Source: a virus
Taxonomy: Duplodnaviria > Heunggongvirae > Uroviricota > Caudoviricetes
DNA length: 64,000 nt
Reading direction: 5' to 3' (one strand)
IMG/VR virus record: IMGVR_UViG_3300021467_000082
Part shown: positions 6,141 to 38,842 of the stretch, piece after piece
Layout of the letters: every line of letters starts with the position of its first letter
How positions within the stretch are numbered: the first letter of the stretch is position 1
Made by a program: the position numbers and the translations under genes
Notes under the pieces: model-generated
What the model saw: the letters and a program-made list of their open reading frames with translations, nothing else
The model's database searches: none
Told to the model about the DNA's origin: nothing

Positions 6141-7511
6141 TTATTTTAGCACATTAGATAAATAATTTTTAGCTTCATCCAGTAATTTATTCTTTCTGTT
6201 TAAATTCTGATCTTCTATTACCAATCCCAAAAGATAATTCAACACGTGTCCAACAGTTGGACCAGGCTTTAAATTAAAATATTCAATTAAATCATCTCCG
6301 CTAATATCTAAGTCCTTAACACTTAGGGCCTTAGATTTCTCATAAACTTCTATAATATGCTCTTCAAACAGTTCCTGTCTATGCGATACTTCACTTAAAT
6401 TTCCACCATTTGCTAATCTATCAGCTCGACGCACTAGAAACAGTGGAAAATTTTCTAGATCTTTCAAATCTTTTTCTTTAATACCTACTTTTTTAATAAA
6501 GCGCCTTATCGCAGAATCTTTCCATTTCTTTGGATCATAATTATACATATGATTATAAACTAAATCACCAACTTCCTTAACCAATTTTGGTTCATATTTA
6601 AGTTTCCTTAAGAACCTTTTAACTATAGTTTTACCCTTAACTTCGTGATTGTAGAAAGTAATTCTACGTTCACCATTTTTCACTATCTCGGCTTGTGTGT
6701 AAGCTTTGCCGATATCATGAAATAAGGCAGCTAATTTTACTTTCAAATCAGGTACGGCATATTCACATGCTAAAACGCAATGCGTAAATACATCATACTT
6801 ATGATATTTCGGATTCTGTTTAACTCCTCTGCACATAGCCAATTCTGGCAATATAGTATATATTAATCCAGAATTCAACAATAATGTGAAATACTTGGAG
6901 GATTTCTTACTCATAACTATTTTATTAAATGCTTCCCTTATTCTATTAACAGTAGTATTATTAATATCCAAATTTTTTGAATTTGCAATTATAGCATGTA
7001 ATAATCTATTATTTAAATCATAACTTAATTCAGCGGCTAGTCCTACCGCTTCAATCATTACTACAGGATCTTTAACTATTACGTAGACAGGGTCATTAAT
7101 AATATCAATAACTTTATTTTTGATTGCTTCAGCCGCACCTGTCAAATCAATAATATTATGATTAGTTACTAATGGAATATACAATCCATGTATGGTGTAA
7201 ATTCTAGTTTGTGCATCCTCTTGCAAACTTATATAAGGATTAATATTACCGTTTAAATCCCTTGGTAATTCAAAAATTGCAATTGTATCTTCGTCTACGA
7301 CTTCTACTATACCTTGTTTCTTCCTAGATGTGACATTATTAAAATGCCTATTTAAATATTTACTAATAGACATCAAAGACAAATTTCTAACTAGGAATCT
7401 ATATTCCGTAGGCCGCTTTCGTCTAACTATATCTCTAGCACAACTACCAGAATAATAGACTTCAGCCTTAGTATCACGTATTAGTTTTCTTGCTATTTGT
7501 TTTATCTTCAT
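6141..7511 (-). CDS. HD-domain protein related to CCA-adding/poly(A) polymerase family enzymes, with a degenerate head motif (SGSCARD, no DxD)
   Basis: N-terminal YYSGSCARDIV resembles the GGxVRD head motif but lacks the catalytic DxD; central HD motif FTHC...LFHDIGKAYTQ. Confidence 0.6.
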   Translation of the reverse strand: MKIKQIARKLIRDTKAEVYYSGSCARDIVRRKRPTEYRFLVRNLSLMSISKYLNRHFNNVTSRKKQGIVEVVDEDTIAIFELPRDLNGNINPYISLQEDAQTRIYTIHGLYIPLVTNHNIIDLTGAAEAIKNKVIDIINDPVYVIVKDPVVMIEAVGLAAELSYDLNNRLLHAIIANSKNLDINNTTVNRIREAFNKIVMSKKSSKYFTLLLNSGLIYTILPELAMCRGVKQNPKYHKYDVFTHCVLACEYAVPDLKVKLAALFHDIGKAYTQAEIVKNGERRITFYNHEVKGKTIVKRFLRKLKYEPKLVKEVGDLVYNHMYNYDPKKWKDSAIRRFIKKVGIKEKDLKDLENFPLFLVRRADRLANGGNLSEVSHRQELFEEHIIEVYEKSKALSVKDLDISGDDLIEYFNLKPGPTVGHVLNYLLGLVIEDQNLNRKNKLLDEAKNYLSNVLK

Positions 7512-10204: not shown

Positions 10205-10607
10205 TAAGCTTATAATTTCTATTGTAACCTCTACAATAAGCGATTGGTTCCATTCCTAATCTTAAATTATTCCTAATATTTATAGTATTAGTACTACGTA
10301 CCAAACCGTATACATACTTCGTAGGTGCAAAGTCTATACCTTTCTTTAATAATCGCTTTCCAATTCCCTGACTTCTATAATCTGGGTGAACTGCGAGATG
10401 TTTTAATTCCGTCACATACCCGTTCTTTTTTTGTACACCAATTGTACCAATCACTTTATTTCTATCCATTTCTATTATATATGTAATGTCGCTGCTTAAA
10501 ATATAGTGCGGCAATATAGTGTAATAGAATTGATCGCCGATATTTAATAAATGGGCGATCTGAGCAGCAACATCGTTTTTTGTTAAGGATAGAATGAATT
10601 TATTCAT
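10158..10607 (-). CDS. GNAT family N-acetyltransferase
   Basis: Motif A: LAVHPDYRSQGIGKRLLKKGIDFA. Confidence 0.75.
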   Translation of the reverse strand: MNKFILSLTKNDVAAQIAHLLNIGDQFYYTILPHYILSSDITYIIEMDRNKVIGTIGVQKKNGYVTELKHLAVHPDYRSQGIGKRLLKKGIDFAPTKYVYGLVRSTNTINIRNNLRLGMEPIAYCRGYNRNYKLIVFAKAKTVEAYNVG

Positions 10608-11736
10608 TTCTTCTCCTCATTAATAGATCTATTACCGCACGAGCCTCATCGTCGTTTCTCACATTACGTATTACTCTAATGAGACCTTCTTCGCCTTCGT
10701 CTACTGGCGGAAAATTTGCTGCTACTACCTGCGGTGCCTCACCATTGATATTTGCATCTAAGATATTTGCGTTTAAACCCTGATCATCTATCTGGCCACG
10801 CAAATCTACTGCTTGTGCTCCAACGGCTCTTTGTCGCCTATTCAATTCATTTAGTTTCGTATTGAACGCATTTACGTACTTATCAAAAGCCGTTCCTTGC
10901 AGGCCTGGACCGCTGTTTACTTCTATTATATATGGATTATCATTCGTATCTAATGCGCAATCTACAGCTCCAAAATCCAACCCTATTGCTGCAATCGCAT
11001 TAATAGCTGCCGTTTTCAAAGCACTCTTTACATTATTCAGGCTAACACTTCGGAATTTCCATCCTCTGCGATTACTTCTCACTATCCTGTCTGGAATTAT
11101 AACTTCCTTAGAAATTATTTCTAACACCTTATCAATTGTATAATTATCCACGTTCCATTCATTTTTATTGGCGTAATCCAAAACTTTTTCCTTACGCTGT
11201 TCGATCCAATGATTTATATCTGCATTCGGAACTTTCTTTACGGCATAAATAACCTTGCCAAAGGCTACGTGCAGTCTATATTCAGTTTTGACGTCTATAT
11301 ATTCTTGGAAATAATCCGCGCCATCTCCTATTGCATCCTTTACATGTGTCTTCGTCAAACAAACCCAGAGTCCTTTGCCACCTTGATGGAATTTTGTACG
11401 CCCAATTAACGGCAACGATATTACACCTCTGGTAATCTTACCTATAATATCATTTTCTGATCTCTCATATTTTGCAATAGTATTGACCAGATTATTATCT
11501 CGCACCATTATATCCAATGCGTTCAATTTATTTCTGTTTGCTCTAATAGCGTTTGGATGGTTGTATACTGTAATATCAGGATGTATATTAATGTCTCTAT
11601 TCGTTTTGGCACCCCATCCGATAAGCACATCCCCTGGCTGAAGCTCAGGCTTCTCACGCGTTCCATTTATGTTCAAGGTTGTTGCCAACGCTCTACCAGT
11701 TACATCAGTTGCTCCACTATACCATAAATAGATCAT
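10600..11736 (-). CDS. ATP-grasp enzyme (RimK/GshB-like)
   Basis: GRTKFHQGGKGLWVC, QEYIDVKTEYRLHVAFGKVIYAVKK, C-terminal PYIIEVNSGPGLQG. Confidence 0.8.
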   Translation of the reverse strand: MIYLWYSGATDVTGRALATTLNINGTREKPELQPGDVLIGWGAKTNRDINIHPDITVYNHPNAIRANRNKLNALDIMVRDNNLVNTIAKYERSENDIIGKITRGVISLPLIGRTKFHQGGKGLWVCLTKTHVKDAIGDGADYFQEYIDVKTEYRLHVAFGKVIYAVKKVPNADINHWIEQRKEKVLDYANKNEWNVDNYTIDKVLEIISKEVIIPDRIVRSNRRGWKFRSVSLNNVKSALKTAAINAIAAIGLDFGAVDCALDTNDNPYIIEVNSGPGLQGTAFDKYVNAFNTKLNELNRRQRAVGAQAVDLRGQIDDQGLNANILDANINGEAPQVVAANFPPVDEGEEGLIRVIRNVRNDDEARAVIDLLMRRRNE

Positions 11737-13049
11737 AATGTTTCCTCCGCAAATTTTAATTTTCTGTTATATTTCCATGCTGACTTGAAATATGGAGTTA
11801 CCCTCAATTCTTTCTCTTTTAGGCCTCTATTTACCAATTCTATGAATGTATCTATATATTTATTATATTTATTATATGTGGGCAATTCTTTAAGCTTTTG
11901 CAAAATATTTTTAACTAAACTATCATCTAATTCCCCGTGCACCTCTAATATTGGTTTAAGTCCGTCTCGGCCCAGATCTACACCAAATTCTTTACTTACA
12001 GCTAACTCTGGCAATAGATTCATATCATCGCCTAGAAAAGTGTGAGTATCCGTATATATAGGAGTAAATGCTTTAGCAATACCTTTCCTTTCGAGGTACT
12101 TATAATATGCCTCAGCTATTGCTTTAGCTGTGCCCAACACGGCTTTTGCTATTGTTGGATGCTTCAACCAGGCTCCACTAACTACTCTATATTCTAGCCT
12201 GTCTCTGTCGGTACGAAAATCACTTACTCTTCCATAATTAGATTTTCTCCGTCTATAAACTGACTTCTCTGCCCCTTCAATTATCATAAACGGAATAGCC
12301 AAAAGATAATTCAGAATATAATGCAAAACTGTAAACATCGAATATTTGGTATCGGGATCATTAATACCTTCTAATATCAATCTTGGCGTGCCTATGTGAA
12401 TATGACCGCCTATCCCATACACACAGGGCTCAATTGTATCAGGTTCAAAGAAAGGATCGGCATACCATGTGTATTTGTCAATTAACTCGACTTTTTCATC
12501 GTTGGTCAAAATAGTTTTAATATTCTCTATAAATTTGTCCACACTAATCTCTGGCTCTGGCCGTAGTTCGGCTAGTGGACCGTCATGTGCCAGTTTCCCC
12601 ATATGTCCAAGACCTTGAACATGAGAGGCATAAATAAATTGTTTAGAATTCAATAAAACGAATTCTGGATCAGCGCCAATTATTATATCGTCAATTGAAT
12701 CAGCAATCCAAATATTATCTACTTTGTTATCAGCTATATCTCCGCATAGATAATTAAACGTTTCTGAGGTTACAAAGCCAACTCTCAGGTAGTCTTCTTC
12801 TGACATTGTCTTTTTTATTTCTTTTAGGTCGGCGCTATAAGCGTGATATATATTAAGCACTAATCCTCTATTAACTCGTTTTGAAGTATCTCCATCTGGC
12901 CATAACTCAACCACTTTTTCTCTTTCCAGACCAAGATTTTCTCTAGCTTTTCTGCCAATCCTTATTAATTTGCGCTCGCTACGTTTCTCGTTTCTCCTCA
13001 CATTCCTATCCATTTTTTTAGAAACTACTAATATAATTCCGTTTTTCAT
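11733..13049 (-). CDS. amidoligase paralog A (GCS2/YbdK-like carboxylate-amine ligase family)
   Basis: ADPEFVLLN..., AELRPEP, GIGGHIHIGTP; the same motifs recur in 18222-19418 and 34397-35677. Confidence 0.6.
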   Translation of the reverse strand: MKNGIILVVSKKMDRNVRRNEKRSERKLIRIGRKARENLGLEREKVVELWPDGDTSKRVNRGLVLNIYHAYSADLKEIKKTMSEEDYLRVGFVTSETFNYLCGDIADNKVDNIWIADSIDDIIIGADPEFVLLNSKQFIYASHVQGLGHMGKLAHDGPLAELRPEPEISVDKFIENIKTILTNDEKVELIDKYTWYADPFFEPDTIEPCVYGIGGHIHIGTPRLILEGINDPDTKYSMFTVLHYILNYLLAIPFMIIEGAEKSVYRRRKSNYGRVSDFRTDRDRLEYRVVSGAWLKHPTIAKAVLGTAKAIAEAYYKYLERKGIAKAFTPIYTDTHTFLGDDMNLLPELAVSKEFGVDLGRDGLKPILEVHGELDDSLVKNILQKLKELPTYNKYNKYIDTFIELVNRGLKEKELRVTPYFKSAWKYNRKLKFAEETL

Positions 13050-14809
13050 TTTTCTACCTCGACAATTGATTTTATTTTTTCTAACTCCTCAGAATTAAAC
13101 ACCGATCGCAATTTATTAATCGTTTTATCTATATCTTCATGTTTATCATTTTTACCCTGATTAGCTATCAAATTTATTACTAGCTTCTTCAATTCATATA
13201 TATATTGACTACGTTTAGTTGACTTCTCTATCCATTTATAGTCCAGGTCTTCCATCGTTGCAGCCATAAAACCTTCTTTCCAGGCAACCTTATAGACTCT
13301 ATTCGCAATAATGGTAGGACCAAGCGAATCGAGCAAAGCCTCGCTAGTAATATCTATTCGATCCATTAATTCTTCATCACTCAAAAAACCTTTCTTATTT
13401 AATGGTAATTCCTGATACGCTAGTTCTGCTGTTTCTCTCACTTCAACAGGTATAGTATTTATATCGACTTCAACTGTTTCTACATTGTTATTGTCTGTGT
13501 CTTTAGCGTCATCCTTACCATTATTTGTTTCTTTAGCATCATCAACCGTATCTGCTTCTGCCACCGCATAGCTGGTTTTATCTTCTATAGTAACTGGTGG
13601 ACTAGCGACTTCTTCTTCAGAATCCATATCATATCCTAGATTCTCATTAGAATCGACATCAATAATCACCCCATTACTGGCAGTTAGCACCTTATCGCCG
13701 GCTTTTACAACATACTTTTTGGTGATATTATCAAATACTCTACGTGGCACTGCTTTATTTTCTTCCTTTTTAGGCTCTTCTTTGGCATTTTCTTTCTTGT
13801 CAGTTTCAGTTTTATTTTGGGCTGCTGTGTTTCTACTTGCATAACTACTTTGATATCCAGCACTACCGCCTTGATGCCTAGTGCCATAAGAATAGCCAGA
13901 CTTAGTAGTCGTTTGGGTATCAACCCATAATTTGGGATATCTAGCCATCTTCTTACTTTCACTGATATCATCTATTGTCGTATTTTCGTCTACATTAGCA
14001 TCCAAATTAAAGATAACGGCTGTATCGTCTGGCATAGTTTCTAACAACACATTATCTTTCTTGACTAGGCTGGGAAGTAATTCTTTGTCTTGATAATAAT
14101 TCGCTAGCCTTTCATATCGAGGCCATACAGCTGTCCAAAATTTACGTTCTGACATCATCAATAATATACCCAAACTTCTTATCAACACAAACTCTACAGG
14201 CCTTGCATCCCTAAACACCGGTACTTGCTTCAAGTTGTCTGCATTAAACAACACTACTGCAAACTGGCCTTGTAGCCTGGTTACAACTTCTTGAATCATA
14301 TCCAATGTAAATGGTTCAGTGCCTTTTTTCGTAAAATGGTCGAGCAATCTAAATATAGCTTCACTATCGACTTCACCATCTCTCTTGCATTTCAAGCGCT
14401 TAAAAATTTCCTCATGGTTTCTCAAAGTCCCATTATGAATGCCGACCAAATTACCTATTTTAATAGGATGATTATTTACATTTTTATAAGTATTTCCATA
14501 AGTTGCTGCTCTGCAGTGGCCTAAATATACTCTAGCGGGAGTTTCATGTTCTTTCCACACTTTGATAAGCCCGCCATAATATTCGCTTGAATTCCCAAAT
14601 TTATGTATGAAAGAACTTACTTTTTCGCCACGTTTCATACCATAGAAATTGCCATCATTGAATAAAACAGCAGCTCCTACTGCATCTTTGCCCCTTGTCT
14701 CTGTCTCCACTAGCAGCTCAGTAGTAAGAACTCTTAAAACTCTTTGTCTTGTTGCTTCTTCTTTTTTCGTTTTCTTTCCCAGTGTTAAACCAACAACTAT
14801 TCCGCACAT
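13046..14809 (-). CDS. class-II glutamine amidotransferase (Ntn, N-terminal Cys) domain protein with a low-complexity linker and C-terminal extension
   Basis: MCGIVVG..., RGKDAVG, GHCRAATYG...NNHP, GIHNGTLRNHEEI, DSEAIFRLL. Confidence 0.8.
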   Translation of the reverse strand: MCGIVVGLTLGKKTKKEEATRQRVLRVLTTELLVETETRGKDAVGAAVLFNDGNFYGMKRGEKVSSFIHKFGNSSEYYGGLIKVWKEHETPARVYLGHCRAATYGNTYKNVNNHPIKIGNLVGIHNGTLRNHEEIFKRLKCKRDGEVDSEAIFRLLDHFTKKGTEPFTLDMIQEVVTRLQGQFAVVLFNADNLKQVPVFRDARPVEFVLIRSLGILLMMSERKFWTAVWPRYERLANYYQDKELLPSLVKKDNVLLETMPDDTAVIFNLDANVDENTTIDDISESKKMARYPKLWVDTQTTTKSGYSYGTRHQGGSAGYQSSYASRNTAAQNKTETDKKENAKEEPKKEENKAVPRRVFDNITKKYVVKAGDKVLTASNGVIIDVDSNENLGYDMDSEEEVASPPVTIEDKTSYAVAEADTVDDAKETNNGKDDAKDTDNNNVETVEVDINTIPVEVRETAELAYQELPLNKKGFLSDEELMDRIDITSEALLDSLGPTIIANRVYKVAWKEGFMAATMEDLDYKWIEKSTKRSQYIYELKKLVINLIANQGKNDKHEDIDKTINKLRSVFNSEELEKIKSIVEVEK

Positions 14810-15846
14810 GATTGCATACTCCTTTCACCTTTCTTCAGAGTGAAATTCTTTAGAACTGCCCAAATAAATTTCGCTATGTCTATATGGTTCGCGACAAGCA
14901 CATTTTTCTCACCGTCTAACTCCATTAAATCGTCTTTATTGTCAGATCCTCCCAATATATAATTTAATACATAATAATTGCGAGTATAATACGATATATT
15001 ATCAAAAATACTCGATGTTAATTGAATCAAGAGACAATATATATCATCATTGATAAATGTAGGGAAAAAGTCTTCATATTTAAAATATGTTATATTAACT
15101 TTATCCACAGTTGCATAATAGGTATCATGTCCATCTGACAATAAATTTGTATATTTAAACGAACGATTAAATTCCTGAATATACTGTTCTATTATATTAA
15201 GAAGTTTCTCAATATTACTCTTGTTGACATTATTAAATGAGAAATTCACAAATCTATATTTATCCACCAATGCTCTAATATTATAAGGATTGGCTATGTT
15301 TATAGAATGTGCCAACTCCAATCTCTTATAAACATTGCCCGAGTATGTTGGTATTTGTGACAAATCTTCAACATTATTCGTTATGTCATTTTCTAATTTA
15401 ACCGGTTTAATTAAACCATCCACAAGCTCGTCCTTCTCCATGTCTATATTTACTTGTATGTGGTGATCCATAAACATAATGGGTTTATTTATTAGCTTTA
15501 AATCTTCAATCTCTCCTATCGAATGTTTACTACTAATTGTAAGTGGTATCTGTGTTAACTCAAACTTTGGAGTGTTAAATAAAAATACTGGTAAATATAG
15601 ATTGTCCCTATAATCATAATTATTTTTTACAATATTTAGTAAAATTTCTTTTGCTCGTTCAATATTAGCCAAACCTTCCCTATCGTCGGTTTTTACTTTA
15701 GCAAAAGATACGATAAACGGCACCCCTAGCATATCTAGATTCGTTTGATTAAACATCTTCATGCATAGCCGCTTTTTCGCATACGCTAAGAACGAATATT
15801 TAAATGTGATCTCGTCCTCCAATAATTTTATAAATTGTAAATCCAT
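14797..15846 (-). CDS. hypothetical protein
   Basis: ORF track, 349 aa; overlaps neighbours by a few nt (operonic). Confidence 0.5.
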   Translation of the reverse strand: MDLQFIKLLEDEITFKYSFLAYAKKRLCMKMFNQTNLDMLGVPFIVSFAKVKTDDREGLANIERAKEILLNIVKNNYDYRDNLYLPVFLFNTPKFELTQIPLTISSKHSIGEIEDLKLINKPIMFMDHHIQVNIDMEKDELVDGLIKPVKLENDITNNVEDLSQIPTYSGNVYKRLELAHSINIANPYNIRALVDKYRFVNFSFNNVNKSNIEKLLNIIEQYIQEFNRSFKYTNLLSDGHDTYYATVDKVNITYFKYEDFFPTFINDDIYCLLIQLTSSIFDNISYYTRNYYVLNYILGGSDNKDDLMELDGEKNVLVANHIDIAKFIWAVLKNFTLKKGERSMQSCAE

Positions 15847-15854
15847 AGTCTACC

Positions 15855-16628
15855 TCAACCGATAAGATTAGTTTTGAAAATTTTTCCTGTCAACACATCG
15901 ATTCTAACTATTTCGTTTTTTAATGTTATTTCACTACTTCTATTATTAGCAAATCTTCCGTAATTTTCTATTACGCCTAATATTTGAGCAGTCGATGCGA
16001 AAGTTATAACGTTTTCTTTTTTATAAATTCGCATGACTAATGGCGTATAGCTATTATCCCTAAATAGAACAACATATCTAGGATTCTTTCTATAGATAAA
16101 CGCACAGGCCATAGAACCTATGAGACGCGGTACTGTAAATTTAACGCTCTCTATCAGTGATTTACCCATTTTAAGATATTCATCTATCAATCTAAATATA
16201 ATTTCACTGTCCACCTGCCCATTGCGCTTTAACTGTGTATTAGTCTCAAATAAAACATCATCATTAGAAATTACACCATTATGAATACCTATTACATCAG
16301 ATGCTATTATAGGGTGATTGTTAAAATTATTAATAAATGGGCCTTTAGTCTGCGCTCTGGTATGCCCTAATATAGCTTTAGTCCTCGTGCCTATTTGTAT
16401 AGTATCAAATATCTTCTTTACTTCTTCATCTTCCACCAGCTTATTCGAGCGAACATAATTTTTATAAGTATATATTTTATCCTCATTCAAAACTACAATA
16501 CCACTGGCGTCAGATCCTCTAATTGCACATGCTTTAAACATATCTATAAATGAATTCTTCAATTGGTATTCTATAATTCTATTTGGAATTCTCTCTCCAC
16601 AATAGATAATTCCACATAACCCGCACAT
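15855..16628 (-). CDS. class-II glutamine amidotransferase domain protein (short)
   Basis: MCGLCGI..., RGSDASG, GHTRAQTKG...NNHP, GIHNGVISNDD, DSEIIFRLI. Confidence 0.8.
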   Translation of the reverse strand: MCGLCGIIYCGERIPNRIIEYQLKNSFIDMFKACAIRGSDASGIVVLNEDKIYTYKNYVRSNKLVEDEEVKKIFDTIQIGTRTKAILGHTRAQTKGPFINNFNNHPIIASDVIGIHNGVISNDDVLFETNTQLKRNGQVDSEIIFRLIDEYLKMGKSLIESVKFTVPRLIGSMACAFIYRKNPRYVVLFRDNSYTPLVMRIYKKENVITFASTAQILGVIENYGRFANNRSSEITLKNEIVRIDVLTGKIFKTNLIG

Positions 16629-16639
16629 ACTTTGCCTCC

Positions 16640-18259
16640 TTAAATCGAAATAATGGTTCCTAATTTAGAGGACCAGATTAAATTGCCTTCTCTAATTCCA
16701 TCTTCAATATAATTCTTGACGTCATCACTTGTTATCTTTACATCGCTAGTTTCGTTTACAATTTCAGTAACATTTCTTATCCATTCTTCTACATCTGTAC
16801 AATCATCTACTAATCTTAAATCTATAGCCTCATCTATTTTAATTTCCACTTGACTCTCTTTATTTAGTCTCACTTCTAAAGACTTTTCGATATCATCCCA
16901 CTTATCTCCTTCTATACGCCTCAACGCTACTGGCTTGTAAGCCAATTTTTCTAATACATCGTATGCAGGCCCAAGTTTAATTAAGATATTCTTCATTTGA
17001 GCCAACATATCCATAGCCTCTTCTCTAAAATATTCGGCGTGATCTAGCAATTCACTGGTATTACTGAATCTTGGTTCACTATAACTTTTGTGAGCTCCAT
17101 TCAAAATAACGTTTTTCATCTCTTTAGCTTTTGGATCATCCAATACTAATAGGCCATATCTGCTAATTTCTACTGCCTTTATTACAAAGGCGAAATGCAA
17201 ACAGGCCAGTGCCGCGTATATAGATGGACACAGCGTAGCATCTGCTTCCCTAAACTCTATATGAAATATTTCTACATCGCCATCAGGAGAAAAACGGCAA
17301 TTTTTATAATTTACAAAACCGTATTTATTACCGCCAGAATTATTTATAATCTTCTCAGATACTCTATACATCTGGCTTTTAACTGGAGATATATCTAGAA
17401 TGCTAACTCTAAACTTTTCCCATCTTGTCATGTGATTTGGATCTCCTAACGCCATTGTTATCCATGTTAATGCGTTTTGGTACTTCCTAATCAATTGATG
17501 CAAATTTGCCAGTATAATCTCTGGCATAGGCCTTTCCAATTCATTGGTGTTTTCATAGTATGATGCCAAAACATGCATGTGGGCGCCACATCGTTCATTC
17601 ACATATGCACCATGTTTCTTGGCCATATCCAGAATTTTCTTTGACATAGTATAAAATTCCCAATAGTTTACTCTCCTACCTACAGTTATAATCTCTACTC
17701 CACCGTCGTCAACCAAAGACCCATCTTTAGTAATCCGTACAACACCGCTTCCTACTTTACCATATGAACCGCTGGGTTTGAACGCATTTTTAAACTTTTT
17801 CCTCACTTCAGCAGGGGGCAAACTTTTGCGTTGATATTTTTCACATGTTTTACATGCCTTAACAAAATCTTGGCAATTCCAACACCGTGGCGCAAATTCA
17901 TTACAGCCGATTCCTATACATACAAAGCTATAATTTTCACAGTGCTGACAATTCTCAGGCTTACAATCCTCAGATCTGTTACCACACGTTTCTAGCGATG
18001 CAACGTTTCTACAATACGTCGTATTTGCACAGTCACTCCAACATTGCCTATTAGTCATATAATAGCATCCGCACTTTAAATTTCCACCAGCGCATCCATC
18101 TTTACCTTTTGGTAAATTCAACTCGAACTCAATGCCGACTTTCAAGATTCTATACAGTATATCTTTCCAATACCGTATCTCATGGGCATCAAGATGTTTG
18201 TCGATTCTAACATTTTTCTTGTCAGTTATGAATTTCCATTTGTTTCTGTTGTCTCTCAT
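16640..18259 (-). CDS. cysteine-rich protein (about 30 Cys in 110 aa), possibly a divergent amidoligase-like core (GAHMHV)
   Basis: Cys cluster CGCYYMTNRQCWSDC...CKTCEKY; later ERCGAHMHVLAS resembles the HIHIG motif of the paralogs. Confidence 0.4.
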   Translation of the reverse strand: MRDNRNKWKFITDKKNVRIDKHLDAHEIRYWKDILYRILKVGIEFELNLPKGKDGCAGGNLKCGCYYMTNRQCWSDCANTTYCRNVASLETCGNRSEDCKPENCQHCENYSFVCIGIGCNEFAPRCWNCQDFVKACKTCEKYQRKSLPPAEVRKKFKNAFKPSGSYGKVGSGVVRITKDGSLVDDGGVEIITVGRRVNYWEFYTMSKKILDMAKKHGAYVNERCGAHMHVLASYYENTNELERPMPEIILANLHQLIRKYQNALTWITMALGDPNHMTRWEKFRVSILDISPVKSQMYRVSEKIINNSGGNKYGFVNYKNCRFSPDGDVEIFHIEFREADATLCPSIYAALACLHFAFVIKAVEISRYGLLVLDDPKAKEMKNVILNGAHKSYSEPRFSNTSELLDHAEYFREEAMDMLAQMKNILIKLGPAYDVLEKLAYKPVALRRIEGDKWDDIEKSLEVRLNKESQVEIKIDEAIDLRLVDDCTDVEEWIRNVTEIVNETSDVKITSDDVKNYIEDGIREGNLIWSSKLGTIISI

Positions 18260-19418
18260 CGACTAGCCTCCAATTATACTTTAGATTAGCACTAAATTTT
18301 TTCTTACCGGTGACATTCAAAATTGCGTATTTATAATAATTCAAAATAGCTAATTTCTCCTCTTTATATTTCAACATTTTGGTCAAATCATTTACAATAT
18401 TGTTTATCATAGCAACAGCACCGTCTATCTTCTCAGATACTATTGCTTTTTTAACCTCTCCTTTATCTGGAATCGATGGATAAATCATTCTGATATCGTC
18501 ATAGTTGAACTTAAGCTCATTATTAAAATTATCACTGACATACGCTAAACGACTTAACAAATCATTCATCACTATTTTAGATATCGATAAAATTCCATGA
18601 GTATAAATAGGATGTCTTAGTAAATGTCCACCAGGTACTCTATATTCTAATGTCATTTGATCCCACCTATAATCTCCTGGTTTACCATATCTACTAAATC
18701 TTTCTGACCTTCGTACATAATCATCATTACCTTCCGGTAAAATAGCTGATACACCAACATAATAATCTAAAATATCAACTATAAAATCCAACCAATTCAA
18801 TTTTGAAGCACGTAATATTTTCTTTGGCAAACCAAAATGAATATGAAAACCAGCAGACATATTATTACAATGGGATGAACCCAACATAACAATGTCATGT
18901 TTTTTTAATATACCTCTACCAATAATATGGTTATAGACTTTCCTTAATAATACATTTATATGAGCTGTCACTTTTATAGGATTGCTAGACGGCATTGGCC
19001 TCAATTCTGCTAGTCCACAATCATTTCCTATTTCTCCATAATGAGGGAAGAAATGACTAGCTGGAATAGCAAATCCAGTTCTACCATCTACCAAATGAAA
19101 TTCTGGATCACATCCCAACATTACATCGCTAGCAGGAGCGACTGAAATAATTTTATTTCTTCTTAATAAATTATATGTATTACTGCTAACATATGCAACC
19201 TCGCTACCTCTTTCAACATCTTCCTTATACGCAATGCTAACCTGAAGTGCTATAGTATTAATCGCAGTTTTTATATCTAAAAAAAGCCCGGTCATAAGAC
19301 CGAGCTTTTCTCTATATACTTGAGGTATTCTAATTAACCTATCTTCAACTGAACCTAATGGAGATTGTTTTGTATCCATTAAACTCGACGGTCTTATTCT
19401 TAGTTTCATAAGCACCAA
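18222..19418 (-). CDS. amidoligase paralog B
   Basis: GCDPEFHLVD, CGLAELRPMP, GFHIHFGLP. Confidence 0.6.
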   Translation of the reverse strand: MVLMKLRIRPSSLMDTKQSPLGSVEDRLIRIPQVYREKLGLMTGLFLDIKTAINTIALQVSIAYKEDVERGSEVAYVSSNTYNLLRRNKIISVAPASDVMLGCDPEFHLVDGRTGFAIPASHFFPHYGEIGNDCGLAELRPMPSSNPIKVTAHINVLLRKVYNHIIGRGILKKHDIVMLGSSHCNNMSAGFHIHFGLPKKILRASKLNWLDFIVDILDYYVGVSAILPEGNDDYVRRSERFSRYGKPGDYRWDQMTLEYRVPGGHLLRHPIYTHGILSISKIVMNDLLSRLAYVSDNFNNELKFNYDDIRMIYPSIPDKGEVKKAIVSEKIDGAVAMINNIVNDLTKMLKYKEEKLAILNYYKYAILNVTGKKKFSANLKYNWRLVDERQQKQMEIHN

Positions 19419-19435
19419 CTCCTTTAATAAACATT

Positions 19436-21238
19436 TTACGCCTCCTCTATCATTGCTCCCATTTTATTATAAACTTCAACTCTATGCCAAAACTGAGCTC
19501 TCAAAATACCTATGTTCTCATCTACATAATCATATAGGATGGCTTCATCCTTACCCTCAGCCTTTCTTTGTATACGACCAAGAGCTTGTTCTGTAAATGT
19601 CTTATTTTTAAATGGCAACACCAAAAAGCCTCGGTTTAGCTTTGGGACATCAAAACCTTCGCCCAACAAATGAAACGTTGTAACTAGTACTGTTATCTCG
19701 TCATTTTCCAATCTAAGTACTTGTTCTTCATTATAGGTTTTAGAATAATCGCCAGTAGCCAATCCAGTTTTTGGCCATTTATCTTTTATTTTTCTATACA
19801 ACTCTTCACAATAATTCTTTCTTACTGATATTACTAGACAATAATTTCCTTTTCTCGCTTCAGCAATAATATCATCTATAATTCGATTGGTCCTTGCTTC
19901 ACTTTCTGTTATTGCTTGTATAGCGCGGCTATAATTATTGCCTATGTATGTTGCGTAATCCAAAGGGACTTTCTTAATGACTGTCTTATCAACAAGATTC
20001 ACGCCTGCCACTTCCCTTGGGATATGCGCAGTAATATCTCCAATAGAAGCATACATTAGATCTTCTAACCCATCTCTTCTATTTGGAGTTGCGGTCAATC
20101 CATATAAATAATAACTTGAAAAATTAGAAATCACCTCCGTAAATGTTTTACTAGGCGTATGATGACAGTTCGAACTTAATATACCATTAGCAATGAATAA
20201 ATGTTCAGTAGTGGTAAAGTCATATACTGTAGTTGGTTTATTATTTACTATTTTTCCTAAAACTGGCATGCATTTGTAATATCTACCATTATAGTTTATA
20301 TCTATACCATCATTAGTAAATTGTACGTCTACTAATAGTAAATCTCCCTCCTTTATATTACTCATAGTTCCAAATGTAACCGTTTTTATATTGATGTTTT
20401 CCATTGGAACATATGGCAATTTATGAGTTGGAGTGCCCTCTAATATACCAAAGCCACCTTGTAAAATAACCGTTTTATCTGTTTTTCTAGCAAACTTGTT
20501 TGTTACTCGACCGAATGGTGTTATATCACCGTCTTTTATATCTTCTATATTTTTTACTGAACCATCAAGCATCAAAATCTTAGTTCCAGCAACTAAACAT
20601 TCATCAACTATCACTAACCCAAATTTACGGCCTAATTCGGGTAGATATTCTCTGCGCCTAATCAGAGTTTGAACTAACGCAATCGTTATCTTGTCGCCCA
20701 GTTCAACCTCTCCACCGCCAATAAAACCTATCTTGCCGATATTTTCTAAGAACATGTTGATACGATCCATAACCTGATTAGCAAGCCTGTTGGTATGAGT
20801 TATCCACAGCATGGGCTGGAATAAAGAAGCAAATAGGTAAAGAGCCATTACTGTCTTGCCACTTCCTGGCGGCGCTAACAGTATACCATTAGGATGTTTC
20901 AATAAATTCCTTTTTGCTGCCTTTTGGTACAGAAACGGTTTAATTTTACTTTCTACTGTTATCGGCGGTAATAATATTCTGTTGTCTATTATTTCTAAAG
21001 GCACTTGTTTATATATAAGACCCTTTTCGATGACCTGTAAATACCCTCTTGGAATAATTATGCCCCCTGGCGTAGTTTGAGCCATGTAAATAAATTCGGG
21101 TATGTTGCCAACATATCGTCCATATTTAATGGCTTCATCAAATACTGGATTCCTAAATGTTAAAGCAGTAAGAAGCCAGTCTCTGAGCTCTTTGGGAACA
21201 TCTAATAATGTAATATGGTGATCAATTATTAATTTCAT
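19436..21238 (-). CDS. SF2 DNA/RNA helicase (motif I APPGSGKT, II DE-CHH, III GLTATPNRRDG) carrying a mini-intein in motif II
   Basis: Helicase motifs present; VIVDE|C...SSN|CHHTP architecture. Confidence 0.85.
   Translation of the reverse strand: MKLIIDHHITLLDVPKELRDWLLTALTFRNPVFDEAIKYGRYVGNIPEFIYMAQTTPGGIIIPRGYLQVIEKGLIYKQVPLEIIDNRILLPPITVESKIKPFLYQKAAKRNLLKHPNGILLAPPGSGKTVMALYLFASLFQPMLWITHTNRLANQVMDRINMFLENIGKIGFIGGGEVELGDKITIALVQTLIRRREYLPELGRKFGLVIVDECLVAGTKILMLDGSVKNIEDIKDGDITPFGRVTNKFARKTDKTVILQGGFGILEGTPTHKLPYVPMENINIKTVTFGTMSNIKEGDLLLVDVQFTNDGIDINYNGRYYKCMPVLGKIVNNKPTTVYDFTTTEHLFIANGILSSNCHHTPSKTFTEVISNFSSYYLYGLTATPNRRDGLEDLMYASIGDITAHIPREVAGVNLVDKTVIKKVPLDYATYIGNNYSRAIQAITESEARTNRIIDDIIAEARKGNYCLVISVRKNYCEELYRKIKDKWPKTGLATGDYSKTYNEEQVLRLENDEITVLVTTFHLLGEGFDVPKLNRGFLVLPFKNKTFTEQALGRIQRKAEGKDEAILYDYVDENIGILRAQFWHRVEVYNKMGAMIEEA
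20168..20599 (-). mobile_element. mini-intein (144 aa, residues C214-N357) inserted in helicase motif II DECHH; no homing-endonuclease domain seen
   Basis: N-terminal CLVAGTKILMLDG (Cys1 block A), C-terminal FIANGILSSN followed by the +1 Cys; the host motif reconstitutes as VIVDECHH. Confidence 0.8.
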
Positions 21239-24895: not shown

Positions 24896-27800
24896 TTAAC
24901 ATCCTATTGCATTTTGTTGATTTGGAACAACCAGTTTATCAATATAATCGGATAACAATCTATACACATCTCTCATTTTCGTCGTTGTTAGAATATCCTT
25001 AACCTTCATCTTCTCGGCTTTGAGCCGCTCTAGCTTGTCTTCTATACTCTCAGTTTGTGTTTGCAGCAATCTTTTCAACATAAAGCTTGGCAGATCAGCT
25101 GCGCTGTCTTGCAGATGATCCAACAATCCAAATGGGCCAAGGCTAGCTCTAGTTGCAAAATAAATTCTATTTCTTTTTCTCACTATGAAGTTAATTATTT
25201 TACTTCCTCCTCTGGCCTTTGCTCTAGCATGAAATTCTTTTAGATTCTGTATACCCAGCTTTGCCGCTTCAGATTTAATCAAATTACACAACAACTCGCT
25301 AGGACGCCTGTCAAATCCCAGACTGACCATGGCATCTACGTCAGCTACACATATTGCATCAGTAGCTTCTTCTTGCAGAGATTTGATTCCATGCTTCTGC
25401 TTAAAAACAGTATTGCCAAGAAAATCCAGCAACAGCTCTAGATGAGCATGTTCTTCAGTTTCAGAATATGGTACATTTCTTTCTACTATTCTCATTAGAT
25501 TATATGCCAACGCAATTACTGGTCCAGTATGACTTTTAACACCAGTTGCTTTTCGTACCAACTCTGCATGTTCTTCATTAGTCGGTTTTGGAAAATAGCA
25601 TATATTGAAATCATCAAACGTCATTTCCTGTATCCTTGGAACTTTCTTACTATTCATTTTATTTATAGCATCAATACATACTTTATTTGGATTATGAAAC
25701 TCCTTTCTCAAAGCTTCTCTTGCCTCTGCAGTATGAAACGATGCCAAGAACAAAGTATCTCCATCAAAATCTAAACTTAAACTTACCAGACTATTTCCAC
25801 TTACTCGAATAACATATCTACACAGTGGATCATCGGTTATTTGCACTTTCTGGGGCCTAATAGACATAAATCCCAAGCAGGGAAATCTTTCTACCAATAC
25901 AATATCCCCAGTCTTCACGTTCAATTGCTGCGCCATATCTCTATGAATCTCAATCGTATTTGGCGGTAGATTATCAGCCAGCGCAGCTACTCCATGCGCA
26001 GAATAAGGATACCTTATAGCCATTCCATATGTGCTCAATTCTCCTCTCTTTGTTCCCATGCTCCTGGCAACTACCCTAAAATACTGCGAAACAGCCCTCA
26101 TAAGTTCATTTTGATTGATTATACTTTTGTCCTCTACAAATTCATGGGTTAGTTGAACAATCCTATTTACCAAAATTCCTACTTGGCTTAGTCCCCACTT
26201 TCCAGATGGATGCCGCCAGCATCTGCGCAGTAGAGCATTTGGAATAAATATTTGATTATATCGATAGACATCATATGTATTTGTATCAACATCATCATCT
26301 GGCAATCCCATAGAAAAATCTTCTTTATCCTGTTTATTAACAACAGCTTGAAAATAACAAGGCAGCCGCATTATAAACCCATCAGCAAAAAATTCTTCAT
26401 CTACAATTGTTCCTTTTATTTCATCAATTGTATGAAGAAAACCTCGGCGCAAATCAACGAATCTAATATCTTCAGCATCAATAATTGGATAGTTAGTGTC
26501 TACTTCTCCTTTAGCAGAATGTAGAATCCTAATTTCGTCTTTAATAATTTCTACTCCTTGTGCATGAGACATTACTTCTTTTATTATAGGGTTGCCAGGA
26601 CCGAACCTAGTTACTAGCGCTTTAATTTCAACATGACTAAATTTCAACCCAGAAGTTCGCAGCTCTCTATTATTCGTAATCCATGCCTTCTTATCGTCCC
26701 ATATTTGATCTTCTGGATCTTTGGTTACGCCCCAAAACATCTTACCTACAACTGCCTGGAATTCTCCACAATATGTTCTAATCATCCAAGAACCATCTTC
26801 TGGAAATCCCTTGGCTTTTAACGCAGCCTTAATTTTACCTTTAGTAACTATATATTCATCGTCTATAACTATTGGATCATCGCCTTCATTCAGATTATTA
26901 GCGAGCATTTCCAATAGTTGGCCAAAATTCTTTCTTTTATTAATAGACGTTCCAGATATGATAACATCGATAGGCACTTCCTCACCGGTTTTTGGATTAA
27001 TGGCTACACCAAGATCCATAAACTTAACAATGCCTTTATTTGCGTGCAGATTGGAAAATTTACTACCGTCTTTCAAAAACCTCTTTCCTTCAACAGTGAT
27101 AATCGTTGCTTTAATTGGCATATTATCCAATTCAACCACAACTCCATTAATGGTCAAGATTTTACCCTCATCACAGCGAAGATCCATTATAACTGGCTTG
27201 CCATCCGGAGAGAAACCTAACTTATCTCCGAATCTTATATTGTCGCCTTCCTCAACTAGGATCTTATCGCCATATATTGTAAACTTCTTATTTACTGTAT
27301 GCGATAGACTCAATAGTCGTTTATCAACCAAAATCTGATCTTCAAAAGTCAAAGGCGTATCCAAAATTGCAGTCGTAAGATTCCAACCCCTTCTTTCAAA
27401 CCCCTTGTCTATAAGTTTCTGCATACTCTTGGTTCTTATCCTAGGCAGCTCATCGCCTTGCATACACAGAGTGGAATATAGATTTCTTTGTGGATTGTGG
27501 AACATTCCAAATGGGGTTATCCTCCGCATATCTAGATCCAGCAGATAATTCTTATCAGCTAATACACCGTCGCTTAAGCCTATTGCAGTCCAGCCAAACT
27601 TTTGATAATATTTTCTATTTTTTTCTACTTGATACTCCAGCCTTTTATTTGGATCTTGAAGTCTATTAAATTCAGGATCTATTATGATGATCCTATGATT
27701 CATGGCCCATGTATTCATGTCAGTTTCATGAATTGGCATTGTATTTACTATTTCATCTATCAATCTCTGAGTACTCATTACCATATAACTGACTTGATTA

Positions 27801-28174
27801 TTCTTGAAGGACCTTGCAATTTTCGCTACCATTGGGGTTCCACTTTCAATATGTGGAAAGATTACATTTACATCGTCCAATAGTAGTTTTTCAATAACTT
27901 GCAAATAAGACAATTCTTCTTGCTTCTCTTCTAGCCAATACCTAGATACTGCTCTCTTAATCCCATTTCTAATTATGAATACCAGGCCATTTTCTATTAC
28001 AGGGAGTGGTATTTCCAAAGCTTTGCTTATTTCTGCATTTTCAAATATAAACCATAAACTATGCTCTACAATTTTAGTTTTTATGTTAGCCGTTACTTTT
28101 GCAAAAGTTTTGTTTCTGTTAAACTCATTCTTCACCCTTTCGGCCAAGATTATGGCCTCATCCATCGGCTCCAT
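24896..28174 (-). CDS. multisubunit RNA polymerase subunit: beta C-terminal half fused to beta-prime N-terminal half
   Basis: Beta motifs SKFSNLHANKGIV (GNKGV), SINKRKNFGQLLE (PSRMNxGQ-like), HVEIKALVTRFG (GEMEVWAL-like), followed by the beta-prime catalytic SLDFDGDTLF (NADFDGD). Confidence 0.8.
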   Translation of the reverse strand: MEPMDEAIILAERVKNEFNRNKTFAKVTANIKTKIVEHSLWFIFENAEISKALEIPLPVIENGLVFIIRNGIKRAVSRYWLEEKQEELSYLQVIEKLLLDDVNVIFPHIESGTPMVAKIARSFKNNQVSYMVMSTQRLIDEIVNTMPIHETDMNTWAMNHRIIIIDPEFNRLQDPNKRLEYQVEKNRKYYQKFGWTAIGLSDGVLADKNYLLDLDMRRITPFGMFHNPQRNLYSTLCMQGDELPRIRTKSMQKLIDKGFERRGWNLTTAILDTPLTFEDQILVDKRLLSLSHTVNKKFTIYGDKILVEEGDNIRFGDKLGFSPDGKPVIMDLRCDEGKILTINGVVVELDNMPIKATIITVEGKRFLKDGSKFSNLHANKGIVKFMDLGVAINPKTGEEVPIDVIISGTSINKRKNFGQLLEMLANNLNEGDDPIVIDDEYIVTKGKIKAALKAKGFPEDGSWMIRTYCGEFQAVVGKMFWGVTKDPEDQIWDDKKAWITNNRELRTSGLKFSHVEIKALVTRFGPGNPIIKEVMSHAQGVEIIKDEIRILHSAKGEVDTNYPIIDAEDIRFVDLRRGFLHTIDEIKGTIVDEEFFADGFIMRLPCYFQAVVNKQDKEDFSMGLPDDDVDTNTYDVYRYNQIFIPNALLRRCWRHPSGKWGLSQVGILVNRIVQLTHEFVEDKSIINQNELMRAVSQYFRVVARSMGTKRGELSTYGMAIRYPYSAHGVAALADNLPPNTIEIHRDMAQQLNVKTGDIVLVERFPCLGFMSIRPQKVQITDDPLCRYVIRVSGNSLVSLSLDFDGDTLFLASFHTAEAREALRKEFHNPNKVCIDAINKMNSKKVPRIQEMTFDDFNICYFPKPTNEEHAELVRKATGVKSHTGPVIALAYNLMRIVERNVPYSETEEHAHLELLLDFLGNTVFKQKHGIKSLQEEATDAICVADVDAMVSLGFDRRPSELLCNLIKSEAAKLGIQNLKEFHARAKARGGSKIINFIVRKRNRIYFATRASLGPFGLLDHLQDSAADLPSFMLKRLLQTQTESIEDKLERLKAEKMKVKDILTTTKMRDVYRLLSDYIDKLVVPNQQNAIGC

Positions 28175-34396: not shown

Positions 34397-35677
34397 TTAA
34401 CCTAGTGATCTAACAAGCGATTCCTCATAACGCAAAGCTTTCTTAACACCAAGCAATCGCGTCAAACGTCTCCTTGTACCAGATAGAAAACTATTGCTAT
34501 TTCCCCAATTGTAATAGTACGTAGATCTATTACCATGTAATGCCCATTCTTCATACATATTGCTGCTTATAAGTTCATCTGTTCCATTCATTATGAGATA
34601 ATCAAAAAGAGTTATTGGATTTAAACCGACATAATCATCTGAATACACATGAGGTTTTCTAGAATAGTTAGAATACAAAAAATTTGTCGATTTACTAAGA
34701 GAACCTATCAATGCTCTGACCGAACGCCAAACTTTCTTAGCATATACAACGTCTGATTCATTTATTGCGCCCCTTACATCTTCTTCACTTATATTAATAG
34801 TTTGCAATAATTTTTCATAACCGTACTTCCTATACGCAAAAGCCGTCCCTAAGCTGGCCAGGCCTAACACCATAGAGACAAAAATTGGAGATTTAAGCCA
34901 CCAACAGCTTAGACTACGATATTCAATTCCATATGGCGTAGGCCTAAAACACCCGGCTTTGCCATACTTGGATCTTCGCCTTTTAGCGGCTGGCGAATTA
35001 TCAAATGGTAACGTCAATAAATTAACGAAGAAATCCAGAGACTTAACCCATCTAATATGCTCTTTTTCACTTGTGATCATCTCACGTTGCCTAGAATAGT
35101 AGGGATCAGCGAGTCCGCCACCATATTCAATACCTACTAAACCTATATGAATGTGGCCTCCCGCGTATCTATATGGATGTTTTTCCGCGTTCATCTCTGG
35201 CGTATTCACAGTGAGCGTATAGGCATTGTAATCTGGCATACACCCAAAGATCTTTGCGTCGTCATGGGCTTGATCCAATATTCGCTTTTGTACTTTAACA
35301 GACGGCTTTAGCGTAATTCTATTTCCTTCTATCATATCAGCAGCTGTAGTTAAAATACGTTTTGTTCTCATGATAAAGTACACTCTACAATAAGTCGGCG
35401 TGATCCCAAATTCAGCTTGAATGCCATCAAAATATAATTTACCAATCGCCTCTCCTACACCTAACCACCTGTCATCAGGTTCTTGCTTTATAATAAGTGG
35501 TTTAGTTTTATGGGGAAAAAATTTATCTGAGTTTAGAATTGTGCCTTTCTTATTTGCTACGAAAAACTCAGGGTCCGCCCCAAAATAGAGAGTCGGTTTT
35601 AGCCCACAGCTTAATTTTCTTTTCATACCGGTTGTTATTTCAGACAACTTAATCCGCTTCATCACTGGACCTCCCAT
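34397..35677 (-). CDS. amidoligase paralog C
   Basis: GADPEFFVAN, GGHIHIGLVG. Confidence 0.6.
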   Translation of the reverse strand: MGGPVMKRIKLSEITTGMKRKLSCGLKPTLYFGADPEFFVANKKGTILNSDKFFPHKTKPLIIKQEPDDRWLGVGEAIGKLYFDGIQAEFGITPTYCRVYFIMRTKRILTTAADMIEGNRITLKPSVKVQKRILDQAHDDAKIFGCMPDYNAYTLTVNTPEMNAEKHPYRYAGGHIHIGLVGIEYGGGLADPYYSRQREMITSEKEHIRWVKSLDFFVNLLTLPFDNSPAAKRRRSKYGKAGCFRPTPYGIEYRSLSCWWLKSPIFVSMVLGLASLGTAFAYRKYGYEKLLQTINISEEDVRGAINESDVVYAKKVWRSVRALIGSLSKSTNFLYSNYSRKPHVYSDDYVGLNPITLFDYLIMNGTDELISSNMYEEWALHGNRSTYYYNWGNSNSFLSGTRRRLTRLLGVKKALRYEESLVRSLG

Positions 35678-37205: not shown

Positions 37206-37451
37206 TTATGGATCTACTCTCTCCACTACCTTATCTATGAAATTTTGTAATGCTCGTGTAGCGTGAATAGAATCCACTACTATATTCTTTTTAGTGGAAA
37301 ATAGAGGTACTTTCGTTTTCTTGTTATATTTTACTGCAACCACTTTGTTTTCATCAGAGTCATGTTTAAATACTGCAACGATATCATTGTCAGATATTGA
37401 AAGAGCCTCAAAATCAAAACGTGATAGATCAACAGTGTTAATGGTTTCCAT
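37206..37451 (-). CDS. hypothetical small protein
   Basis: ORF track, 81 aa. Confidence 0.4.
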   Translation of the reverse strand: METINTVDLSRFDFEALSISDNDIVAVFKHDSDENKVVAVKYNKKTKVPLFSTKKNIVVDSIHATRALQNFIDKVVERVDP

Positions 37452-38829: not shown

Positions 38830-38842
38830 ACCCCAATTATAC

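Follow-up and report, generated by a model that had tools for sequence, protein, structure and literature searches.

What are 144 extra residues doing inside the catalytic motif of a phage helicase? The question is raised by a stretch of 64,000 nucleotides of DNA, hereafter the window, from the IMG/VR virus record IMGVR_UViG_3300021467_000082 (Caudoviricetes). Here a 600-amino acid open reading frame (ORF) for a superfamily 2 (SF2) DNA helicase is interrupted inside motif II, its DExH box, so that Asp-Glu is parted from Cys-His-His. It is very likely that this insert is a class 1 mini-intein, that is, an intein without an endonuclease domain, and the evidence for this, together with that for four alternatives, is set out below.

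The precursor reads FGLVIVDE213, followed by C214 and LVAGTKILMLDGS, and the insert closes with LFIANGILSSN357 ahead of C358 and HHTPSK. The insert, C214 to N357, thus lies between VIVDE and CHH, and all 144 residues find an exact match in the window (Table 1). Excision in silico leaves a protein of 456 amino acids in which LVIVDECHH is intact, LVIVDECHHTPSK, with FGLVIVDECHHTPSK as the predicted ligated junction; the computed masses are 52.0 kDa for the spliced product and 15.9 kDa for the intein. An earlier note on this DNA, made from the letters alone, had given the ORF, the junction residues, the span of the insert and the restoration of the DExH box on excision, all of them exactly, and its estimates of about 52 and about 16 kDa agree with the computed masses. 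Its ORF coordinates were right, while the minus strand, on which the ORF lies, had been left unsaid. The assignment of the host to the SF2 helicases is borne out by its ResIII and Helicase_C domains and its RadD/XPB-like character, as is the placing of the insert, which follows immediately on the motif II β-strand and parts DE from CHH.

Comparison with the 120 best-matching homologs of the full-length protein (four of which a motif scan left unclassified) shows what the helicase looks like without the insert. Seventy-five of these homologs, most of them about 452-474 amino acids long, have no insert and read straight through motif II, ten (593-625 amino acids) carry a mini-insert of 142-166 residues, and a further 31 (774-834 amino acids) carry an insert of 351-360 residues that contains LAGLIDADG_3 (PF14528). 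The insertion point, DE / C...SSN / CHH, is identical in 41 of 41 inserts, and in alignment the mini-inserts cover the first ~100 and the last ~45 residues of the long ones, with the central endonuclease missing. The alignment of the spliced extein with the nearest empty homolog (P0016, 60% identity) runs ungapped across the junction, FGLVIVDECHHTPSKTF against FGLVIVDEVHHCPSTTF. Cys1, the terminal Asn and the +1 Cys are each present in all 41 intein alleles; the +1 Cys, in contrast, is found in only 9 of the 75 empty alleles (Fisher p=6e-23, uncorrected for phylogeny), where this position is otherwise Ala (51), Val (7), Ser (4) or Thr (4). A Cys at +1 is therefore apparently a need of the intein and not of the helicase itself, and an apparent A/V-to-C change at this position accompanies intein invasion. 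The earlier note had suggested looking for homologs in which the same residues form a normal insertion domain without the splice-junction residues: among the 120 best homologs none was found, and the 75 without an intein simply lack the 144 residues.

Within the insert, block definitions and numbering follow PMC4031507. No variation is seen across 40 sequences at intein positions C1, L2, G13, T27, G30, K35, F36, R38, G55, H59, L89, Y108, D127, F128, T129, H133, F135, L141, S142, S143 and N144. Block F reads VYD127FTTTEH133LF, with its Asp and His both invariant, and among close relatives the intein varies most around the linker DVQFTNDGID. A Pfam scan detected no LAGLIDADG or HNH domain in the 144-residue insert, as the earlier note had held, and a length of 144 residues falls inside the natural size range of inteins, which reaches down to 134 (PMC4031507). 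Hidden endonucleases have been described for some actinophage 'mini-inteins' (bioRxiv 10.1101/2025.01.02.630785). We rejected such a gene in an alternative frame or on the antisense strand, as no other-frame or antisense ORF of more than 81 amino acids overlaps the insert. Assignment to class 3, the hallmark of which is Trp at B:12, Cys at F:4 and Thr at G:5, usually without a Cys1 nucleophile (PMC4031507), was likewise rejected, since this triplet is absent (B:12 is Leu, F:4 Asp and G:5 Ser) and Cys1 is present. An internal cysteine, Cys110 (protein C323, 20270-20272, minus strand), is kept in at least 90% of the 40 family members and falls on none of the known catalytic block positions; its role may be a structural or a redox one.

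Table 1. Features of the interrupted helicase gene, in window coordinates.
Feature	Position	Strand	Details
Helicase precursor ORF (N-extein, intein, C-extein)	19436..21238	minus	600 aa; SF2, ResIII + Helicase_C
N-extein, residues 1-213	20600..21238	minus	terminates in motif II β-strand VIVDE (20600-20614)
Motif I APPGSGKT, in N-extein	20852-20875	minus	
Probable mini-intein, C214-N357, 144 aa	20168..20599	minus	predicted HINT fold, without endonuclease domain; AF2, Foldseek, TIGR01443, family comparison
Block A, CLVAGTKILMLDG, with putative Cys1 nucleophile C214	20561..20599	minus	C1, L2, G13 invariant (40 sequences); weak Hom_end_hint match, residues 1-25
Block B, GTPTH (intein T56..H59 = TxxH)	20423..20437	minus	G55 and H59 invariant; T56 in at least 90%
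Linker DVQFTNDGID, 10 residues (putative deletion scar)	20300..20329	minus	full-length relatives have a ~200-aa LAGLIDADG domain there
Blocks F and G, VYDFTTTEHLFIANGILSSN	20168..20227	minus	block F Asp127 and His133; penultimate Ser143 (non-canonical); terminal Asn144 (N357)
C-extein start CHH	20159..20167	minus	putative +1 Cys nucleophile C358 (20165-20167) and HH of the DExH box
C-extein, residues 358-600 and stop	19436..20167	minus	motif III GLTATP, RecA2/Helicase_C, motif VI QALGRIQR

Several observations weigh against an active intein and have to be considered before this reading is accepted. Pfam intein models score the insert below their gathering thresholds (PF05203, 17.1 against 32.1 bits; PF14890, 11.9 against 35.8 bits), and phmmer and profile searches of the PDB sequences are unconvincing, the best hits being the PRP8 intein at E~0.9 and Tetrahymena BIL2 at E=0.0017 (profile). 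The canonical penultimate His is absent, its place being taken by Ser143, which is fixed across the family including the endonuclease-bearing members. Finally, our estimate of selection on the intein, with a proportion of nonsynonymous differences (pN) of 0.19-0.26 against a synonymous proportion (pS) of 0.57-0.72 and a ratio of roughly 0.1-0.25, is a rough one, as pS lies near or beyond saturation.

The sequence models are weak on their own. Pfam finds in the insert alone only sub-threshold stretches of Hom_end_hint (E=0.0056, residues 1-25) and Intein_splicing (E=0.19, residues 118-144), and the matches of nine mini-inteins of the family are likewise all sub-threshold, the family having diverged too far for Pfam's intein models to recognise it; the NCBIfam model TIGR01443 (intein_Cterm) does pass, at 17.4 bits against a cutoff of 15.6 (residues 125-144). 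A phmmer search with the 144 residues alone against 1.84 billion cluster representatives returned 102 proteins at E<=1e-3, among them helicases with Pfam Intein_splicing above its gathering score (e.g. P0128, E=2.4e-11). For the HINT (Hedgehog/intein) fold it is the structure search that is decisive. The AlphaFold2 (AF2) model of the insert, built on an alignment of 40 sequences, is all-β with a predicted local distance difference test score (pLDDT) of 96.7 and a predicted template modelling score of 0.89, and Foldseek gave 55 PDB matches at E<=1e-3, of which all of the 50 listed are HINT domains of Hog proteins, bacterial intein-like (BIL) proteins or inteins. At E values from 2e-8 to 1e-6 these include Hog (2e-8), BIL2, Mtu RecA, gp41-1, Prp8 (template modelling score, TM, 0.76) and Npu DnaB, and the matches also include the Mxe GyrA and Ssp DnaB inteins and the Tetrahymena and Clostridium BIL domains. 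When the whole precursor is modelled with AF2 (pLDDT 86.1), the insert forms a β-module that folds apart from the helicase core and starts right after the motif II strand (E208-212), and pLDDT drops below 50 only at the two junctions, 214-218 and 358-362.

These data bear on two of the alternatives. One is that the insert is an ordinary lineage-specific insertion domain, with a merely chance likeness to intein junction residues. Although the sub-threshold Pfam models are what such a domain would give, we regard this idea as refuted and leave it next to no probability, given the HINT fold at a pLDDT of 96.7, the pass with TIGR01443, the 102 significant sequence relatives with Hint or intein domains and the exact presence/absence polymorphism at the site. 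The other is that it is a BIL or some further non-intein HINT domain, which would process itself in a manner unrelated to extein ligation. Hog and BIL domains are indeed among the top Foldseek matches, the best PDB profile match is Tetrahymena BIL2 (see above), and many of the remote relatives are tandem Hint repeats without a +1 nucleophile. However, BILs occupy variable regions of non-essential proteins and have no conserved +1 nucleophile (PMC4031507), whereas here an invariant catalytic motif is combined with an invariant +1 Cys and with a Ser-Asn rather than a His-Asn end, excision restores the motif precisely, and sister alleles carry a LAGLIDADG homing endonuclease. A BIL identity is, in our estimation, very improbable.

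With a mini-intein as the preferred reading, it has to be asked whether it is an active one. The earlier note's description of a block G with a terminal Asn holds for N357 and for the +1 Cys; its penultimate residue, at block G position 6, is Ser and not the canonical His. Some other residue stands at this position in about 5% of functional inteins, and Asn cyclisation can be aided by the block F His (PMC4031507); the Ser is a minority state and not a disqualifier. Selection was gauged from the DNA of two clade relatives on metagenome contigs (P0002 on L001 and P0004 on L003) by Nei-Gojobori counts. Substitutions in the intein fall mostly in the central linker region, with blocks A, B, F and G almost unchanged, and pN in the extein is about 0.12; the insert is thus clearly, as far as such counts can tell, under purifying selection, less strict than that on the helicase. 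On a contrary view the intein would be degenerate or exapted, its HINT domain non-splicing or only cleaving, the insertion permanent and the helicase a pseudogene or altered in function. The SSN ending without its penultimate His, the loss of the endonuclease, which would place the element in the decay phase of the homing cycle, and an intein that within the clade evolves faster (60-67% identity) than the extein (78-80%) would all accord with this. It is nevertheless hard to reconcile with catalytic positions that are all invariant in ~40 diverged sequences, including 31 endonuclease-bearing ones with the same SSN ending, with a +1 Cys retained in every intein allele, or with an intein pN far below pS. 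Moreover, a permanent insert of 144 residues in the DExH box should abolish ATPase activity, and the extein is strongly constrained. Decay of this kind is in our judgement quite improbable. The earlier note's intein reading is upheld by the HINT fold and by Cys1, TxxH, the block F Asp and His, the terminal Asn and the +1 Cys, which are kept across 40-41 relatives, and because the catalytic residues are conserved and the intein is apparently under purifying selection, it is very probably splicing-competent.

We infer the chemistry and the splicing itself from these features and propose the following mechanism. Translation would yield a 600-residue precursor in which the 144-residue HINT domain parts Asp-Glu from Cys-His-His, just past the Walker B strand, and this unspliced precursor would presumably be ATPase-dead, because DE is split from HH and motif III is displaced by 144 residues. 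Cys214 would undergo an N-to-S acyl shift, assisted by the Thr and His of block B, and Cys358 (+1) would then attack the thioester to give a branched intermediate. Cyclisation of Asn357, helped by the block F Asp and His standing in for the absent penultimate His, would free the 15.9-kDa intein, and a final S-to-N shift would create a Glu213-Cys358 peptide bond and so a 52-kDa helicase with an intact VIVDECHH.

How such an element came to be there is suggested by its distribution. In a neighbour-joining tree of the exteins the inteins are scattered in a patchy manner. Full-length inteins stand beside empty sisters (P0007/P0069, P0013/P0080, P0009/P0096, P0010/P0083 and P0005/P0021), and mini-inteins occur at no fewer than six separate places, often as sister to full-length ones (P0011/P0014, P0018/P0019 and P0037/P0045). 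Since there are at least six such places, since the deletion end-points differ among the mini-inteins, and since for every mini-intein the nearest intein is also that of the nearest extein, the endonuclease must have been lost in situ and more than once, in no fewer than six independent lineages. Family-wide, mean identity is 54% for the inteins and 47% for their hosts, with a weak correlation between the two (Spearman 0.34), a pattern which is consistent with horizontal spread by homing. In the element's own clade (P0001-P0004) the intein is 60-67% and the extein 78-80% identical, and the deletion boundaries are held in common, which looks like an old endonuclease loss followed by vertical inheritance. 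On the sequence comparisons the helicase family thus appears to show a classical homing cycle, with all stages at one site, and the earlier note's suggestion of a remnant of a homing event is strengthened by the 31 same-site relatives with LAGLIDADG_3. Base composition was considered as a sign of foreign origin and proved uninformative: at 30.8% the guanine plus cytosine (GC) content of the intein lies below the window's 35.9 +/- 4.3%, and a value as low or lower occurs in 9% of segments of its size. We propose that the ancestor was a LAGLIDADG-bearing homing intein which targeted exactly this site in the phage helicase family, and that its endonuclease would have been deleted before the split of the clade's four known members, after which it would have been immobile, vertically inherited and under selection for splicing only.

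The persistence of an immobile intein could also be read as a sign that it has become useful. Under conditional splicing, which overlaps our preferred explanation in that the element is still a splicing intein, the mini-intein would be kept as a post-translational switch, for example a redox switch acting through Cys1, Cys+1 or Cys110, that times helicase activation in infection. Its location in an essential catalytic motif, the two junction Cys together with a third internal Cys kept in at least 90% of the family, and the long persistence in the clade without an endonuclease are in keeping with this, as is the redox-responsive splicing demonstrated for a DnaB helicase intein (PMC6195587). However, the difficulty of a precise deletion explains the persistence equally, and empty alleles are the majority (75/120), so that the helicase needs no intein. 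We consider such a switch unlikely, if somewhat less so than decay. Similarly doubtful, to our mind, is the broader thesis that the motif II 'SSN' inteins are a divergent clade missed by Pfam which splices without a penultimate His, and whose endonuclease-free form is retained as a conditional (redox- or stage-dependent) helicase switch and not merely because deletion is hard.

As for the host, its Pfam matches are ResIII (1.4e-19), Helicase_C (8.8e-7) and also DEAD, and motifs I (GSGKT), II (DExH), III (TAT) and VI (QxxGRxxR) and two RecA-like domains are present. It is assigned to PHROG 16, 'DNA helicase', and the NCBIfam RadD and XPB models match it in part, far below their equivalog cutoffs. 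From these matches it is best regarded as an SF2 DExH helicase that resembles the RadD/XPB type and is an ortholog of neither. A protein identical to it (P0001) is known from public metagenomes, while its closest deposited relatives reach only 25-31% identity.

The window itself has the look of a segment from a large uncultured phage: nearly every ORF of at least 100 amino acids lies on the minus strand, GC content is 36%, there are three tRNAs, and megablast of 24 kb of the window against 50,697 deposited phage records gave no match. A hidden Markov model of the intein family, run over all six-frame ORFs, found no second intein of this family in the window. Gene order around the helicase is preserved in relatives. 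A gene for a 1092-amino acid protein (24896-28174, minus strand), with RNA_pol_Rpb2_6 at residues 332-463 and Rpb1_2 at residues 748-820, is kept upstream of the helicase in relatives L001-L004; by its domains the protein looks like a fused two-barrel RNA polymerase, and tblastn against the 50,697 deposited phage genomes at 1e-5 returned no match. Also on the minus strand are three phiEco32-like COOH-NH2 ligases (11733-13049, 18222-19418 and 34397-35677), beside which (10600-19418) lie a glutamine amidotransferase (13046-14809), a RimK-like ATP-grasp protein (10600-11736) and ORFs without assignment, a cluster of amide- and peptide-bond enzymes that suggests a phage-encoded modification or metabolite pathway. 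A tRNA-related set (306-1364, 6141-7511 and 37438-40177, minus strand) comprises tRNA-Thr, tRNA-Pro, tRNA-Trp, two proteins of the PolyA_pol/CCA-adding type with HD, and an RtcB RNA ligase, and could be a tRNA repair module. Between 41000 and 57000 most ORFs are short, and coding density at a 100-amino acid threshold is low compared with the rest of the window.

The element is a further example of a well-known type and not new in kind; it will not surprise specialists, and the present understanding of inteins is unchanged by it. Pipelines based on Pfam see only DEAD, ResIII and Helicase_C here, and the gene should be annotated as an intein-containing precursor. The family offers a natural homing-cycle series at one site, with empty alleles, endonuclease-bearing inteins and six or more independent endonuclease losses, and a compact intein of 144 residues with Cys1, Cys+1 and a Ser-Asn end may be of minor interest for protein engineering and for work on Asn cyclisation without a penultimate His.

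The same insertion site is also used elsewhere. A first group of remote intein relatives occupies a DE / C...(T/S)HN / CHH site in diverged ResIII/Helicase_C/ERCC3_RAD25_C helicases of 600-1354 amino acids, mostly with LAGLIDADG_3 and a canonical His-Asn ending; a second group consists of tandem Hint repeats (...VHNK / CF.AGT...), which are BIL-like and have no +1 nucleophile. Among individual proteins, P0187, a metagenomic helicase of 1342 amino acids, contains two stretches each of Intein_splicing and LAGLIDADG_3, from two inteins of which one occupies the motif II site, and P0123 and P0213 (744 and 907 amino acids) contain 5-7 tandem repeats matching intein residues ~35-90 without junction motifs, a repeated β-module. 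A literature search for inteins in XPB/RAD25-type helicases found nothing relevant. Two mini-inserts are present in deposited phage records that carry no intein annotation and are missed by Pfam-based pipelines in the same way, one in lb338_phage_136 of Lactobacillus phage Lb338-1 (NC_012530.1, L005; FIADE / CLVPNT...MSHN / CHHSRAD) and one in VPHK453_0081 of Vibrio phage K453 (OZ196068.1, L006; FQDE / CFPAGT...VVHN / CHHVLRD), each of ~145 amino acids.

Among known systems to set beside the window intein are the LAGLIDADG inteins of its own helicase family (P0005-P0116, metagenomic), with which it shares the insertion point, the SSN / C ending and 50-58% identity over the splicing regions; these have, however, a LAGLIDADG_3 domain of ~200 residues between the splicing halves, where the window intein has a linker of about 10. 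The inserts of Lb338-1 and K453 are at the identical motif II position but end in His-Asn and belong to different helicase families (25-27% identity). Phage helicases, and ATPases in their Walker A/B motifs, are well-documented hosts of inteins (PMC7344957, PMC5050341, PMC4760082); those of the putative helicase CB7_80 of Pectobacterium phage CB7 (PMC7344957) and of the mycobacteriophage helicase HEL (PMC5050341) are, like that of the window, inteins of phage SF2 helicases, but of other helicase families and with canonical His-Asn endings. Type A BIL domains are among the best structural and sequence matches and resemble the window intein in HINT fold and block A (CF.AGT), yet they lack a +1 nucleophile, are found in tandem in variable proteins and are mainly cleaving (PMC4031507), whereas the window intein occupies a catalytic motif that is conserved and is followed by a +1 Cys that is invariant. 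Class 1 mini-inteins (the Mtu RecA splicing domain, Ssp and Npu DnaB, and the phage-derived gp41-1) have the HINT fold in common with it at Foldseek TM scores of 0.68-0.76, and share Cys1, TxxH, the block F Asp and His, the terminal Asn, the +1 Cys and the lack of an endonuclease; from these solved inteins it differs in a sequence identity of only 12-25% and in a penultimate Ser in place of His.

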